A DNA stretch of 7,328 nt, taken from IMG/VR virus record IMGVR_UViG_2660238209_000013, positions 1-7,328 of that record. The stretch is one strand, 5' to 3'. Position numbers and translations under genes: made by a program. Source of the stretch: a virus. Lineage: Duplodnaviria > Heunggongvirae > Uroviricota > Caudoviricetes. Numbering within the stretch: position 1 is the first letter of the stretch; the number at the start of each line of letters is the position of its first letter. Below the pieces are notes generated by a model. That model saw nothing but the letters and a program-made list of their open reading frames with translations. It did no database searches and was not told the origin of the DNA. Shown piece after piece: positions 2,388 through 7,328 of this stretch.

Positions 2388-2406
2388 TGGGGCTGTCCTT
2401 TTTACC
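2376..2406. terminator. Bidirectional rho-independent terminator between the convergent portal gene and the 174-aa gene
   Basis: Stem cagcccc (2377-2383) / ggggctg (2389-2395) with loop gtgat. It is flanked by an A-run upstream (aaaaaa, 2371-2376) and a T-run downstream (ccttttta, 2397-2404), so either strand gives hairpin plus U-tract. It overlaps the Q stop (2385-2387) and the TAA stop of the minus-strand gene (2402-2404). Confidence 0.6.
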
Positions 2407-2926
2407 AGAGTTGAACCATTTTCTGGGTGCCGTCAGGCTTGAGATTATCAATTTCAGAGAGAACGTAATATTGAATGGCTTCACAAACGGTGGTGTAGGG
2501 TGAATTACCTTCTTTAAGTGGCACGATATTATTATTAACGCGAACCTGTATTTCATCGTTATACATTGCGATCGAAAGAGGAGTATGCACGAAGGCGACT
2601 TCGCCAGGTGTGTCGTCAACCACTGTCTCAATGCTGAAAATCAGTTTTCGCTCATCATTGCCGCCCCTTGCTTTGGGGGTAGAGGCAGGAATCTGAGATA
2701 AAGGCATTCTGCGAAACCCTTCAGTTGTTTCCAGTCCGCATGAAACGTAATGCTGGCGATTACCGTCGCTATCAGTCCATGTCTGTGATGGCAGCTCCAG
2801 AGAGATTTCATAAGCATCTACAATTCCCTGAGCAAGGTGTACAAGCGGGGTCAGATCTTCATTGCGGCGAAAACTTTCCTTTACCTGCTCTCGTTTTTCT
2901 CGTAACTGCTTGTAATTAATGACCAT
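2402..2926 (-). CDS. Hypothetical protein, 174 aa, no family recognised; cargo gene in the Q-A accessory region
   Basis: ORF track gives 2402..2965 from a GTG. I prefer the internal ATG at 2924-2926 (protein begins MVINYKQLREK) because a GGAGG Shine-Dalgarno lies 8 nt upstream on the minus strand (AATGGAGGCTGTTTTATG). Ends with TAA at 2402-2404 inside the bidirectional terminator. Mixed-charge, globular-looking composition with no obvious transmembrane segment. Confidence 0.6.
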   Translation of the reverse strand: MVINYKQLREKREQVKESFRRNEDLTPLVHLAQGIVDAYEISLELPSQTWTDSDGNRQHYVSCGLETTEGFRRMPLSQIPASTPKARGGNDERKLIFSIETVVDDTPGEVAFVHTPLSIAMYNDEIQVRVNNNIVPLKEGNSPYTTVCEAIQYYVLSEIDNLKPDGTQKMVQLW

Positions 2927-3488: not shown

Positions 3489-3758
3489 TCAATTGTTGCT
3501 GTGTATTAATCGCCAACCACGAACATATGCTTCATAAGCATCTCTGTGCCTTACAGTTCCAGCCTGGCTAAACGGAATGTTAGCTAAAACTAAATCATTC
3601 TGAGCCATAGCGCGTCCTTCAAGCGCATCTTTTATGCCTAGCTCAAAAGCACAGGCAGCGCATTTGTGCCGACCTTCTTGTCCTTGATATTCAGGGAGAG
3701 ACAGAAATGTTGGGTTATAACGATGAGGGTTCTTGCAAATACCTGTTTTAGCCCGCAC
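3489..3758 (-). CDS. Hypothetical small protein, 89 aa, GTG start; contains Cys8 and a CxxC at residues 33-36
   Basis: ORF with GTG start (plus-strand 3756-3758) preceded by a GAGGT Shine-Dalgarno 6 nt upstream (ATGAGGTAAATAAGTG) and an in-frame TAA immediately before the GTG. Followed by an intrinsic terminator. Preceded by a structured, terminator-like leader. No family recognised; coding status not certain. Confidence 0.4.
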   Translation of the reverse strand: MRAKTGICKNPHRYNPTFLSLPEYQGQEGRHKCAACAFELGIKDALEGRAMAQNDLVLANIPFSQAGTVRHRDAYEAYVRGWRLIHSNN

Positions 3759-3775
3759 TTTATTTACCTCATAGG

Positions 3776-3959
3776 AAAAATATGCGTGCCTTTACAGAGG
3801 TGCGTGTAAGCAATAAAATATACGACGCACATTTTGATTTACTTCGGAAGGCACGCATATCAGGTTAAGTGAGTCCGACCGAGTTCTACGCCCCAATAGT
3901 TGCTGCTATTGGGGCGTTTTGCATGGACAATGCCGCGCAATTATCTTGTCGCTCACAAT
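3776..3959 (-). ncRNA. Candidate structured 5' leader or small RNA upstream of the 89-aa ORF, ending in a terminator-like hairpin
   Basis: Minus-strand transcript predicted from the promoter at 3967-3994. It contains the antisense of a perfect 12-bp hairpin (3888-3917), then a 13-bp long-range stem (3780-3792 pairing 3848-3860) enclosing a 55-nt loop with its own 6-bp inner stem (gtgcgt 3800-3805 / acgcac 3825-3830). A run of 4 U follows (plus-strand A-run 3776-3779), then the SD and GTG of the 89-aa ORF. Read from sequence; no covariance or expression support. Confidence 0.3.
3888..3921 (+). terminator. Hairpin plus short T-run; possible plus-strand intrinsic terminator (or just a stable hairpin in the minus-strand leader)
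   Basis: Perfect 12-bp stem acgccccaatag (3888-3899) / ctattggggcgt (3906-3917), 6-nt loop, followed by ttt g (3918-3921). No convincing plus-strand promoter found upstream, so function on the plus strand is uncertain. Confidence 0.35.
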
Positions 3960-3966
3960 GCGAACG

Positions 3967-3994
3967 ATCTTACAAAAAGGCACATTACTGTCAA
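3967..3994 (-). promoter_or_regulatory. Strong sigma70-like promoter on the minus strand (TTGACA - 16 nt - TAAGAT) with AT-rich upstream region
   Basis: Minus-strand sequence attatcTTGACAgtaatgtgcctttttgTAAGATcgttcg. The -35 is a perfect TTGACA (plus-strand 3989-3994), spacer 16 nt, -10 TAAGAT (plus-strand 3967-3972). The upstream 60 bp is AT-rich (UP-element-like). A GATC (3966-3969) overlaps the -10. Confidence 0.5.
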
Positions 3995-4122
3995 GATAAT
4001 TGATCGTTTTAATCGATAGATAATAGACAATCTATTTGTTTAACAGATCGATTATTGAAGTAAGTGCGCCAAATGGAATGATACTGTTTCTATAAATGTG
4101 AGCATTTTTCGCGCAGATGCTT

Positions 4123-4434
4123 TTACTCAGGAAATAACGCCCGGATATTCCCAGCCATCTGGCTGGTTATCTTAGCCACTGGTGCAGACTGTGCTTCAAA
4201 CTTTTTTGAGCTGATTTGTGTCACAGGTAACATCTCATCATCAGCCCATGCGGCCAGTCGGTAAGCCTCTGCCGGATTCGTCTTCAGAAGTGCCAGCCCG
4301 GCCAGAAAAGCCACGCGTTGGCCGCTTTTGCGGGCTTCTGGTGTAAGGCTGTCCAGCCAGGCGCATGCTTCTCCTTCGTTCTTGACGGCAGCTGGCTTCA
4401 GATAGAAACTTATTCTTCTGGTTGGTGTCGTCAT
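4123..4434 (-). CDS. parR: ParR/StbB-like small DNA-binding protein (putative centromere-binding adaptor), 103 aa
   Basis: Immediately downstream of the ParM-like gene (4-nt gap). Strong AAGGAG Shine-Dalgarno 7 nt upstream of the ATG, inside the end of the upstream gene. Size and motifs (N-terminal RRISFYLKP, AGLAL, C-terminal LFPE) resemble plasmid R1 ParR as I recall it. Gene order repeats-parM-parR matches R1 parC-parM-parR. Confidence 0.7.
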   Translation of the reverse strand: MTTPTRRISFYLKPAAVKNEGEACAWLDSLTPEARKSGQRVAFLAGLALLKTNPAEAYRLAAWADDEMLPVTQISSKKFEAQSAPVAKITSQMAGNIRALFPE

Positions 4435-4438
4435 TGGT

Positions 4439-5398
4439 TTACTCCTTGTTCATTGCGTACAGCCCATTAACCAGAGCAAAATGTGGCACCCCGTCCGTGA
4501 TGAAAGTCGCATTAACTCCGCAGGCTTCGCGGATAGCGGGTGCCACAATCTCCGCCCCTCCACCGACAACCATCACCCGCCCGTAACCGGAAAAACCCGC
4601 CAGCGCGCGGATCACTCGTTGTTTCAGTGTCTCCTCCTTTTCACGAATAACCGCCATCAGGCTGTTGTAATGCGCGTCATTGTGAATGTGCTGGCGCAGC
4701 CAGGCTTCATCGTGACGGTGCTCAATAATGGTATTGGCGATGTGGTGACTGGTACGCATACCGTTAGTGGCCATCACCGACAGCACGGCATCAGCCATCA
4801 GGGAAACGCCTACGTGTGGATCGCAAAACACCTGGCTGATACCTGCCAGCTGCCCCTGAACCTTTGCCACATCCAGCGTGGTTCCGCCCAAATCCACAAT
4901 CAGCAGGGATTCAAACGGACTCATGTCAGCCAGTGCCTTAAAGCCAGCCGGAATGGATTCAGGCATAACCCGCACGTTACGGATAGTGAATGCTTCGCCG
5001 TTCTGGTACTCCACCGGGCGCATAACGTTCGCTTTTTTGCGGTTGATGTTGGCTATGTCCGGCTGTGCGTTTGTGTCGAAATACTCGCTCAGTGGCAGGG
5101 TGACAACCACATCCACCTCCTGTGGCGTGATGCCTGATTTGACCAGCGCGTGATGAATGGCAATGACATTCACATCACTGTATTGGTATTGCGTGTCGGT
5201 CGTCTGGACAAAGCGATCGCTGACCGGATCAAAACCATAGCGCACGCCATCAAGCATGTAGTTCGCGGGCTGCGTGCCACCGAACGGCGCAGACCATTCC
5301 GACTTGAAGCTGTTCGGGCTGATGGCGTTGCGGCGTTCGCCGTTCTCAGTCCATGCCAGCTTGATGTTGGTGGAGCCGTCGTCGATACAAATTTTCAT
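4439..5398 (-). CDS. parM: ParM/StbA-family actin-like segregation ATPase, 319 aa
   Basis: ATG at plus-strand 5396-5398 with an AAGGA Shine-Dalgarno ~8 nt upstream. The translation carries the ParM/actin-fold signatures throughout: N-terminal DDGSTNIKL (phosphate-1), SPNSF, YSDVNVIAIHHAL, VMPESIPAG, IVDLGGTTLD (phosphate-2), GGGAE (adenosine motif) and C-terminal LVNG. It appears collinear with plasmid R1 ParM over the full length (from memory). Confidence 0.88.
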   Translation of the reverse strand: MKICIDDGSTNIKLAWTENGERRNAISPNSFKSEWSAPFGGTQPANYMLDGVRYGFDPVSDRFVQTTDTQYQYSDVNVIAIHHALVKSGITPQEVDVVVTLPLSEYFDTNAQPDIANINRKKANVMRPVEYQNGEAFTIRNVRVMPESIPAGFKALADMSPFESLLIVDLGGTTLDVAKVQGQLAGISQVFCDPHVGVSLMADAVLSVMATNGMRTSHHIANTIIEHRHDEAWLRQHIHNDAHYNSLMAVIREKEETLKQRVIRALAGFSGYGRVMVVGGGAEIVAPAIREACGVNATFITDGVPHFALVNGLYAMNKE

Positions 5399-5427
5399 GT
5401 CGCTTTTCCTTATGTTGATTAATTAAT

Positions 5428-5541
5428 CGTTTACGGGATTCTGAAATCCCGTTTTTGCCTGTTTTGTGCGCGCTTCATATATCGCTGCGCGTTTTTTGCT
5501 CATTTACGGGATTCGTGAGTCCCGTTTCTGTCTGTTTTTTG
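5428..5541. repeat. Two ~40-bp direct repeats, each containing an 8-bp-arm palindrome (acgggatt ... aatcccgt) followed by a T-rich tract; candidate parC-like centromere or operator
   Basis: Copy 1 tttacgggattctgaaatcccgtttttgcctgttttgtg (5430-5468) and copy 2 tttacgggattcgtgagtcccgtttctgtctgttttttg (5503-5541) are ~80% identical, 73 bp apart. Copy 1 lies between the A stop and the parM start; copy 2 lies inside the last ~25 codons of the A reading frame. Confidence 0.5.
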
Positions 5542-6916
5542 TTTCCACTGGTCAGGCCACCCTGCAGCAGGTCTGCTTTGCGGCTGGCGCGTTCAGTGGT
5601 TTCACTGATTCTCTGTGCGTGCTCTGCGTCGCGGATGGCGCGCAGCATGTCAGAAAGCACGGTAACGGGTGTTTTCATGGTGTTCTGATCCTGCTGAAGT
5701 GCGGATGCCAGGCGTGCGGCGGCTTCGGGGTCTGATGCCCCCAGCTGTGCCAGATAGCTGGCGACCGGGTTATGGCGGATCTCCGTGCTGCTTACGCCGT
5801 GATTACGGCTCAGGTGCTGCCAGAGCTGCGTGATTCGGCTGTCCGGGCGGGGATCCGGTTTGCGTACAATTTCATATCCCTGCGGTGCAATGATGCTGCC
5901 GTCAACGTACAGGCTGCCGCCCCGTAGCAGGTGCTGCATCTGCTGTTCACCGATATGCAGGCCGAGAGATTCGGCAGACTCCCGCCATTCTTTAGCGAGT
6001 AATTCGTGGTTATCAGGCAAAGGCCGCTGCTGTTTGCGGCTCTGTGTCCAGCTCTGCATTTCATCACTGCTGTTTTTTGCCTGTTTGTCACGAAGCGAAC
6101 GCATCAGCGCCCGGCGTTCGTGCCGTTTCAGTGAGCGCATCCATTCGTTCACTTCAACGCCGTCAGGGAGCTGCGGCCACGGTGCTGGCCGTTCTTCCGG
6201 CTGTTCTGCCCCGTTGTTGTCCGTTTCCTGTACACGGGGACAGTTATTGCCACGAGTCCAAGGGGCGGCAGGGCCGCCCTGAAGGTCAAAACCATTTTCG
6301 CGGGCGCTGTCTTCCGTTTCCGGTTTACGTCTTACCAGTTTCCAGTTATCCGGATGCGTGCACACACGGGAGGATTCCCCGATGAGTGGTGACCAGATCC
6401 CGTAAATCTGTACGCTCTGTTCGCCGTAATCATTCAGCTCATCTGCGAGGTCGTAGGCGGTGCGAATCAGGTAGTCTTTGCGTGGAACAAGTACGCCGCC
6501 CTGTTTTTCAATGTAGGTGGCAAAACACCCGGCATCGGCGGCAGCGAGTACCGCATCCATTGCATCATCTTTCAGCCGTTGCGGGCCTTCCGGATTGCGT
6601 GCCATCTGGCTGGCAAGGCGGCGCAGTTCACGCCACACCTGACGGGAGGGGATGCCAAAGAACTGGAACTGACGGACCCGGTGAAGGCGCGCCCAGCCGA
6701 TGGCGCGCTCCACGCTCTCGGCCATTGATTTTCCGGTTTCGTGGTCAACGCGTGGCTTGCCCGTTTTCGGGTCGATGCCATCCACGGCGCGGCTGTCCAG
6801 GTTCTTTCCGATGTAGGTGGCGATGTAGCTGGTTGGTGTGCCTTTTGAGCCGTCGACATACTCCGCCTTAAAACGCGGAGTTATGTCATCGCCCAGCTCG
6901 TGGCGGTCCTCCTGAA
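5475..6916 (-). pseudogene. A: 3' portion of a gpA-like rolling-circle replication initiator (phage replication endonuclease), N-terminal part removed by IS insertion
   Basis: The minus-strand frame is open from the IS boundary (~6917) to the stop at 5475-5477 (ORF track starts at GTG 6785 but no stop intervenes upstream). I translated the sequence just inside the boundary as ...GSKGTPTSYIATYIGKNLDSRAVDGIDPK..., which contains a Y-x-x-x-Y-x-x-K motif (codons at plus-strand 6813-6827) like the paired catalytic tyrosines of P2 A and phiX174 gene A proteins. The frame runs straight into the IS terminal repeat. Position opposite Q across the accessory region matches P2 gene order. Confidence 0.65.
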
Positions 6917-6970
6917 TGAACCGCCCCGGAAATCCTGGAGACTAAACTCCCTGAGAAAGAGGTAAACAGG

Positions 6971-7297
6971 ATGACTAAAAATACTCGTTTTTCCCCCGAA
7001 GTCCGTCAGCGGGCGATTCGTATGGTTCTGGAAAGTCAGGATGAATATGACTCACAGTGGGCGGCAATTTGTTCCATTGCCCCAAAGATTGGCTGTACGC
7101 CGGAGACTCTGCGTGTCTGGGTTCGCCAGCATGAGCGGGATACCGGGGGCGGTGATGGTGGGCTCACCAGCGCTGAACGTCAGCGTCTGAAAGAGCTGGA
7201 ACGTGAAAATCGTGAACTGCGCCGCAGTAACGATATCCTTCGCCAGGCTTCCGCTTATTTTGCGAAGGCGGAGTTCGACCGCCTCTGGAAAAAATGA
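6971..7297 (+). CDS. IS3-family transposase OrfA (helix-turn-helix / leucine-zipper subunit), 108 aa
   Basis: Complete ORF. Protein [23 protein letters not shown]...[36 protein letters not shown] has the typical IS3-family OrfA HTH plus coiled-coil and a C-terminus ending at the frameshift window. AGG Shine-Dalgarno-like GAGG at 6958-6961. Confidence 0.9.
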
Positions 7298-7328
7298 TGC
7301 CACTGCTGGATAAGCTGCGTGAGCAGTA
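7294..7328 (+). CDS. IS3-family transposase OrfB (DDE catalytic subunit), 5' end only; expressed by -1 frameshift from orfA
   Basis: ATGATGCCACTGCTGGATAAGCTGCGTGAGCAG (7294 onward) translates [11 protein letters not shown], which matches the IS629-type OrfB N-terminus as I recall it. It is in the -1 frame relative to orfA and overlaps its stop. Runs off the window. Confidence 0.7.

Follow-up and report, generated by a model that had tools for sequence, protein, structure and literature searches.

A probable IS1203-bounded deletion in replication gene A of a defective P88-like prophage of Escherichia coli O111

What has happened to a phage replication gene whose reading frame runs, without interruption, into the end of an insertion sequence? 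The window analysed here (the whole 7328-bp stretch of DNA) poses this question near its right-hand end, where gene A of a P2-type prophage, read on the minus strand, meets the terminal repeat of an IS3-family element. The original prediction read this junction as an insertion that had displaced the 5' part of gene A to the other side of the element. Extension past the end of the window, together with comparison of complete genomes, leads to a different answer: in a defective P88-like prophage, the window very probably holds one edge of a deletion bounded by IS1203, most likely produced by a single IS copy through adjacent deletions that extend outward from it.

Prophage and genomic context

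The window matches E. coli O111:H- strain 11128 with 99.95% identity (4 mismatches over 7328 bp); position x of the window is position x + 5501 of the L001 sequence. The prophage is integrated in the chromosome between ihfA and btuC. It is a P2-type, P88-like element (Xuanwuvirus, Peduoviridae): a collinear genome of high identity, the P2-type morphogenesis genes, and the A-parM-parR arrangement are all present. The left part of the window carries structural and accessory genes.

Left part of window, plus strand: P2-type large terminase gene (3' part) and portal gene
Between the portal gene and parR: two small cargo ORFs, function unassigned

Neither cargo ORF has a PADLOC match, and their PHROGs matches are exclusively to families of unknown function.

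Three relatives serve for comparison: phage P88, phage vB_EcoM-569R5, and a prophage of E. coli O104:H4 that occupies the same btuC site and retains all of its early genes. The O111 prophage shares gene order with this group; in terminase, portal, parMR, and the 3' part of A the nucleotide sequences are 96-98% identical. With the O104:H4 prophage it also shares the integration site. The A fragment, taken by itself, is likewise 96-98% identical to its closest sequenced relatives, which are P88-like phages. What sets the O111 copy apart from the group is loss: it is without the 5' part of A, the small early genes, the cox-like gene, the C-like repressor gene, and the beginning of int.

The structural genes look intact, as originally stated: morphogenesis and lysis genes are present, in the layout of the undeleted O104:H4 prophage. 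A tail gene D lesion accompanied by inversion of a tail block was considered, as RefSeq annotates an 801-nt D with a small pseudogene, and FI-U lie on the opposite strand. This candidate was rejected because the undeleted O104:H4 prophage has the identical arrangement and annotation.

The gene A fragment

The features that bear on the replication initiator are as follows.

5475..6916, minus strand: 3' fragment of gene A, a P2-type replication initiator (residues 467/468-946 of 946 aa, plus the stop)
6804..6827, minus strand: YIATYIGK (YxxxYxxK), the two-tyrosine motif 3 of an HUH rolling-circle initiator, read from the sequence
6240..6278, minus strand: block homologous to the P2 origin (nick-site) region, from DNA alignment around P2 nick site 29892

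Translated on the minus strand from 6962 downward, the frame meets a stop inside the IS (6942-6944) and is then open from 6941 to the stop at 5475-5477. This bears out the original description of an A frame that runs open into the IS repeat at 6917, about 30 codons before YxxxYxxK; alignment with P2 gpA agrees. By comparison with the intact A of strain 8E, the junction between A and the IS falls at 6916/6917, with an ambiguity of 2 nt (TG), and lies 30 codons N-terminal of the first YIATYIGK tyrosine. The first in-frame ATG, GTG, or TTG is GTG 6785, past the tyrosine motif; between the in-frame IS stop and this codon there is no start codon in frame. As predicted, then, nothing can start translation ahead of the motif, and a product begun at GTG 6785 would be without the tyrosines. 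The predicted lack of a promoter also agrees with a scan of 5300-7328, which returned 0 sigma-70-like sites where 0.9 were expected by chance, a count that is weak evidence either way.

Identity of the fragment is clear from several directions. It differs at 2 positions in 1442 nt from the intact A of O111 strain 95NR1, and RefSeq enters it as "replication endonuclease, incomplete, missing N-terminus". Its match to Pfam Phage_GPA (PF05840) is confined to positions 278-321 of 321, that is, 44/321 of the model; in PHROG 91 ("nicking at origin of replication") it matches profile positions 436-852 of 852. No NCBIfam model matches the A protein. Its alignment to P2 gpA and to intact P88-type A proteins covers the fragment from end to end and, in those proteins, the C-terminal half.

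P2 gpA, a member of the HUH superfamily and a relative of phiX174 gpA, resembles the intact P88-type proteins in motif 1, the HUH motif, and YxxxYxxK, over all of which the two align; the nick-site region within the gene is conserved as well. The P88-type proteins are the longer (940-946 aa versus 761 aa), with N- and C-terminal extensions. In the alignment the YIATYIGK tyrosines share invariant columns with Y450 and Y454 of P2 gpA, reportedly the catalytic residues of that protein. Measured against gpA, the window copy consists of residues 467-946 only: it keeps the tyrosines and the origin-like block, and is without motif 1, the HUH motif, and a start codon.

The intact 946-aa A of 95NR1 shows what the break removed. 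In that protein motif 1 begins at residue 375, HUH occupies 443-449, and the tyrosines are Y497 and Y501. The window breaks off at residue 467 of this intact O111-lineage A, and hence between HUH and the tyrosines. Both motif 1 (FLTxT...) and the HUH metal-binding motif are absent from the fragment; both lie in the deleted part (residues 375-449).

With neither a start codon ahead of the tyrosine motif nor an HUH motif, the A fragment is a dead pseudogene, and the prophage cannot make a functional A protein. The predicted failure of A-dependent rolling-circle replication therefore holds, and more strongly than claimed; motif 1 and HUH, which the original prediction did not mention, are lost as well. 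The fragment has simply not had time to gather stop codons.

Block 6240-6278, kept within the fragment, is a putative origin region, its function suggested by homology to P2. The P2 origin region is also located inside gene A.

The insertion sequence

Only the first part of the element lies within the window.

6917..7328, plus strand: IS1203, first 412 bp of a complete 1310 bp (898 bp more lie past the window end)
6917..6941, plus strand: left terminal inverted repeat (IRL), 25 nt, TGAACCGCCCCGGAAATCCTGGAGA
6971..7297, plus strand: IS1203 orfA, 108 aa, helix-turn-helix (Pfam HTH_Tnp_1)

The complete element spans L001 12418-13727, from window position 6917 onward. Its inverted repeats (TGAACCGCC.../...GGCGGTTCA) are 25 nt each and 88% complementary, with 1260 nt between the arms, which gives 1310 bp; the ends read 5'-TG...CA-3'. 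The orfA (108 aa) and orfB (296 aa) frames overlap at AAAAAATGATG, and a programmed frameshift is annotated in RefSeq. From about 7252 onward come the -1 frameshift region and the ALIL pseudoknot, which the end of the window truncates; the whole pseudoknot (L001 12753-12869) scores 121.5 bits in Rfam against a gathering score of 50. OrfB contains Pfam rve (9.3e-28; the DDE core) and HTH_21, and reaches 316 bits against a cut-off of 160 for NCBIfam NF033516, IS3 family transposase. Length, TG...CA repeats, the orfA/orfB frameshift, and the rve/DDE core are thus all those of the IS3 family, whose members measure about 1.2-1.55 kb.

In RefSeq the entry reads "IS3-like element IS1203 family transposase". 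The name IS1203 used here comes from this RefSeq/PGAP annotation and from PMC3271280 on the isoform: IS1203 is an isoform of IS629, first found in O111:H- (PMC3271280). The original call of an IS3-family, IS629-like element is thus upheld by the inverted repeats, NF033516, rve, and ALIL.

In the four O157:H7 genomes for which IS629 copies have been tallied, 62% of those copies are in prophages (PMC3271280). The O111 copy is like IS629 in its 1310 bp, TG...CA repeats, orfA and orfB, ALIL-associated -1 frameshift, and DDE (rve) core, and also in its prophage location.

Beyond the element

If IS1203 had simply inserted into an intact gene A, the rest of A would lie just past the other IS end, and a duplication of 3-4 bp would flank the element. 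The window alone is compatible with this reading, as the frame meets a clean IS end. Extension past the window end was the test that the original prediction itself named, and the rest of A is not beyond the IS. The sequence that follows the right repeat is ACAAGCCATGAG..., the remnant of a 114-nt ORF; then come, in order, the DUF4754 gene, a hypothetical gene, and a shortened DUF4761 gene. The neighbours of IS1203 are accordingly gene A codon 467 at IRL and, at IRR, the 114-nt ORF remnant beside the DUF4754 gene.

Nor do the IS flanks (...CCTGAA on the left, ACAAGCC... on the right) share a target-site duplication of 3-4 bp. IS629 normally generates such a duplication of 3-4 bp (PMC3271280), so this IS1203 copy is not a simple insertion. 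That is a property of the copy and not of the family. It is shared with other members: the duplication is missing at 26 of 47 O157 IS629 insertion sites (PMC3271280), and the O111 copy resembles these 26.

DNA is missing as well. Relative to phage vB_EcoM-569R5, homology ends at L004 10944 and returns at 14698, with 3753 bp missing; relative to the O104:H4 prophage at the btuC site, it ends at L005 6783 and returns at 10419, with 3635 bp missing. The size of the deletion varies with the relative used as reference because the region upstream of A differs between phages. Within these 3.6-3.75 kb (approximately) were A codons 1-466, encoding motif 1 and HUH, and the small early genes upstream of A. 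A smaller figure of about 1.72 kb, measured against strain 8E, was dropped as an ancestral measure because 8E carries a deletion of its own.

The missing half of A has not been moved to another site. At 99.9% identity or above, none of the IS-bearing genomes contains the 5' half of A; matches to the 8E 5' half at that level (at least 99.9%) occur only in four O111 genomes, all with an intact A. Absent elsewhere in the IS-bearing genomes, the 5' half was deleted and not moved. In sum, a DUF4754 gene lies past IRR, no target duplication flanks the element, roughly 3.6 kb is missing relative to both O104:H4 and 569R5, and the 5' half of A is gone. Simple insertion thus retains virtually no credibility, and the notion that the 5' part of A was displaced falls with it.

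Alleles in other O111 genomes

Complete genomes supply a series of alleles at this locus; roughly 47 of those from O111 contain the prophage. The junction between A and the IS occurs in 39 complete E. coli genomes, all O111 where a serotype is given; an arrangement shared by 39 genomes is not a chance pattern. The junction between the IS and the DUF4754 side occurs in 38 genomes, in every one of which A is truncated as well. In about 30 genomes these same junctions accompany a 332-bp in-frame deletion within the IS. In strain SF26 102-1 the full IS is kept and a further 706 bp adjoining IRR are gone. This strain is a direct example of this very IS copy making a one-sided adjacent deletion while staying put.

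In three O111 genomes (UTAK-8, 110512, and SD134209) no IS separates the truncated A from the DUF4754 side. These genomes are what one would expect if an IS-independent deletion had fused the 3' part of A to the DUF4754 region before IS1203 inserted there by chance, the IS-less state being ancestral. The details of the three junctions argue otherwise. They are mutually different, reading CCTGAA/GCCATG in UTAK-8, CCTG/CCATG in 110512, and GGTCCT/GAAGCCATG in SD134209. Moreover, the native bases ACAA (compare CAGAACAAGCC in the O104:H4 prophage) are kept in the IS-bearing allele and are missing from every one of the three. Lost bases cannot be regained, so the IS-bearing allele is ancestral, and the three IS-less junctions are scars of imprecise excision. 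A chance insertion into the fused sequence should, in addition, have left a target duplication beside the IS, which has none. Deletion before insertion is therefore extremely improbable.

Two further alleles combine an intact A with clustered deletion endpoints. Strain 8E lacks the IS and retains A in full, with a junction, GGAGAA/GCCATG, that was found in 8E alone among 5426 genomes. The right endpoint of this junction is that of the UTAK-8 scar, 4 nt from the right end of the IS. Strains 95NR1, 95JB1, and 8B match the 5' half of A at 99.9%, and the 5' halves of 8E and 95NR1 differ by one base. The one of these three examined further, 95NR1, has an intact A and a larger deletion, whose left endpoint (GGAG/CACCAT) is 2 nt from that of 8E.

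The 8E arrangement (A, a 351-nt ORF, DUF4754) might have been a phage variant of natural origin, from which the window allele descends directly. We rejected this on account of the junction, unique among 5426 genomes, and of the native bases that the IS allele keeps and 8E is missing, an argument that amounts to one informative base (C versus G) together with the clustering of endpoints.

The locus thus exists as a full IS, an internally deleted IS, an IS-adjacent deletion, three scars, and two alleles with intact A and clustered endpoints. At least six O111 alleles can be distinguished, and in them one small locus preserves a natural history of IS excision and of deletions beside the IS.

Several O111 strains contain a second P88-like prophage, with an intact A, about 245 kb away.

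Origin of the structure

Endpoints cluster within 2-4 nt at each of two sites, and the best explanation is that a single IS copy formerly lay between the two. This suggests a model in which a single IS1203 copy inserted in the early region of the prophage. The ancestor would have read ...GGAGAA-IS-ACAAGCC..., that is, ...CCTTGGAGAA-IS1203-ACAAGCCATG..., with A intact. IS-adjacent deletions would then have extended outward from the IS ends, the last of them reaching into A. Excision of the IS would have given the 8E allele; excision with loss of flanking DNA, the 95NR1-type allele; and retention of the IS with deletion of the left-hand DNA as far as A codon 467, the allele of the window. The presumed ancestor, with the IS at GGAGAA/ACAAGCC and A intact, was not found in any complete genome.

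The same end product could arise by recombination between two IS1203 copies in direct orientation, one at A codon 467 and the other in the 114-nt ORF, with loss of the interval and one IS left behind. That route would yield just what is observed, a complete IS between unrelated flanks that carry no duplication. Local hops of the element are plausible too, as O111 genomes contain 35-40 or more places that match the IS. Against it, no genome was seen with two copies at the locus; recombination alone leaves unexplained the 8E and 95NR1 endpoints, 2 nt apart in the ORF upstream of A; and SF26 102-1 documents a one-sided adjacent deletion by this same copy. On balance we regard recombination between two copies as rather unlikely, and a single IS1203 copy with outward deletions as the preferred account.

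The behaviour proposed for this single copy has precedents. In EHEC, IEE-promoted excision of IS629, with deletion of flanking DNA, is credited to Kusumoto et al. (2011) and Ooka et al. (2009) in the accounts given by PMC9943667 and PMC9397093. The adjacent deletions may be as short as a few nt or may exceed 40 kb, with microhomology at the joins (PMC9943667); joining by microhomology is also described in bioRxiv 10.1101/2023.06.07.543989. In O111:H8, iee resides on SpLE1-like elements (PMC9397093). The O111 locus is like the IEE/IS629 system in its one-sided deletions from an IS end and its scars with microhomologies of 1-2 nt, and no mechanistic difference is seen. IEE may therefore have acted at this locus, with iee in the strain of the window presumed from the literature. 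The set of alleles might be used to mark lineages or, in O111, to test for IEE activity.

Decay of the prophage

Loss of A is accompanied by a second deletion. This one is 1077 bp long and IS-free, with a 3-nt overlap at its junction, and the junction is present in 43 genomes. It took the 5' end of the DUF4761 gene, the cox-like gene, the C-like repressor gene, and the first 183 nt of int; the int ORF that remains is without the N-terminal 74 aa.

The consequences for the prophage are considerable. Having no functional A, it is unable to nick its origin. With int not intact and the cox-like gene gone, excision should fail; with no C-like repressor, there is no immunity control. The O111 prophage is replicated passively with the chromosome.

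Domestication had been offered as one reading of intact structural genes beside a disabled A. The second deletion, in taking the cox-like gene, the C-like repressor gene, and the 5' end of int, gives the prophage instead the look of ordinary decay.

In the pools of defective prophages carried by EHEC, such as those of O157 Sakai, prophage genes are inactivated by IS elements and by deletions. The O111 prophage appears to be of this kind, with intact-looking morphogenesis genes and inactivated genes for replication, regulation, and integration; nothing notable sets it apart.

Might the remnant itself still act? The retained 3' part of A, which keeps the C-terminal domain and the origin-like block, could be a decoy or dominant-negative factor against the A protein of superinfecting or co-resident P88-like phages, through the product of GTG 6785 or through its origin DNA. 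If so, the remnant would serve phage exclusion, or would be mobilised in trans. We consider this very unlikely.

The significance of the locus lies in little beyond correct annotation. That the prophage contains an IS and a truncated "replication endonuclease" pseudogene is already known from RefSeq. Prophage erosion driven by IS629/IS1203 is well documented in EHEC, and the locus adds no new kind of biology. The literature searched, which stopped short of the O111 genome paper of Ogura et al. (2009), yielded no description of this locus or its alleles.

The parMR module

Directly downstream of the A fragment lies a partition module.

4439..5398, minus strand: parM (Pfam StbA_N, 3.5e-82; ParM C-terminal domain, 2.5e-67)
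4123..4434, minus strand: parR-like partner gene (Pfam Plasmid_stab_B, 9.8e-24; PHROG 2515, partition protein)

The pair combines an actin-like ParM with an adaptor ParR, as such a module should. It had been taken as a sign that another replicon maintains the element. This proposal is not sustained: in P88, vB_EcoM-569R5, and the O104:H4 prophage, parM and parR likewise follow immediately on A. The module is native to all P88-like phages examined, and the element is chromosomal.

In modules of this type a parC centromere, built of repeated ParR sites, is expected upstream of parM; a candidate for it is formed by two 42-nt direct repeats, with internal palindromes, at 5427-5468 and 5500-5541.

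Gene A and its alleles

Within the surviving part of gene A, the P2-type replication initiator gene, a block with homology to the P2 origin and nick site is conserved.

Window 6240-6278, minus strand: putative P2 origin/nick-site block, GCCGCxCCTxGGAxTCxTGxCAATAACTGT

Strain 8E, whose gene A is intact, has an 18-nt patch (nt 1426-1443 of A, equivalent to window 6873-6890) with four substitutions. These match the allele of the P88-like phage vB_EcoM-569R5 (569R5); the other allele is common to the window and O111 strain 95NR1. The 8E patch may reflect a short gene conversion, and the 8E genome contains a second matching place for gene A.

Several O111 genomes with the truncated prophage also contain, about 245 kb distant, a sequence that matches the 5' half of A with 99.2% identity and is annotated as 'replication endonuclease'. 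This points to another P88-like prophage in these genomes, one whose gene A is intact. Strain 11128 had no such distant match among the top-ranked matches listed. Two examples are as follows.

NZ_CP027307.1, 1026179-1027569: distant match to A 5' half
NZ_CP169013.1, 2070853-2072243: distant match to A 5' half

The IS1203 element adjoining truncated A has its own variant: in about 30 O111 genomes it bears a 332-bp internal deletion, which takes out the last part of orfA together with the frameshift region and the first part of orfB. What is left is an in-frame fusion ORF of 293 aa.

O111 strain E2863 region, 3918-4895: internally deleted IS (equivalent to about 12733-13064 in the strain 11128 source region)

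Partition module and upstream repeats

ParM/ParR genes lie directly 3' of gene A in each P88-like phage that was compared: P88, 569R5, and the prophages of O104:H4 and O111. This plasmid-type segregation system is here carried by an integrating P2-like phage.

Window 4123-5398, minus strand: ParM/ParR actin-type partition module
Window 5427-5468 and 5500-5541: two direct repeats, 42 nt each, just upstream of minus-strand parM

The repeats share 81% identity at a spacing of 73 nt, and the one at 5500-5541 falls within the 3' end of gene A. Each includes a palindrome with an 8-bp stem (ACGGGATT....AATCCCGT), and a T-rich run comes after it. The repeats could be either of two things: parC-like sites for ParR, or terminators.

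Variable region and btuC side

Two cargo ORFs occupy the variable region that extends from the portal gene to parR.

Window 2402-2926, minus strand: cargo ORF
Window 3489-3758, minus strand: cargo ORF

The ORFs match phrog_5091 and phrog_3941, both families of unknown function; Pfam and PADLOC searches of the two returned no match. The stretch separating them is unlike that of 569R5 and the O104:H4 prophage.

Beyond the window, an IS-free deletion of 1077 bp has removed a cox-like gene, the C-like repressor gene, and the 5' end of int. Its junction, at 14480-14482 of the strain 11128 region, shows a 3-nt overlap. The deletion is common to 43 genomes, among them 8E with its intact A. Farther along lies a conserved ORF, identical in O111 and O104:H4.

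Strain 11128 region 15282-15677: 131-aa ORF located between int and the prophage end on the btuC side (phrog_14142, unknown function)
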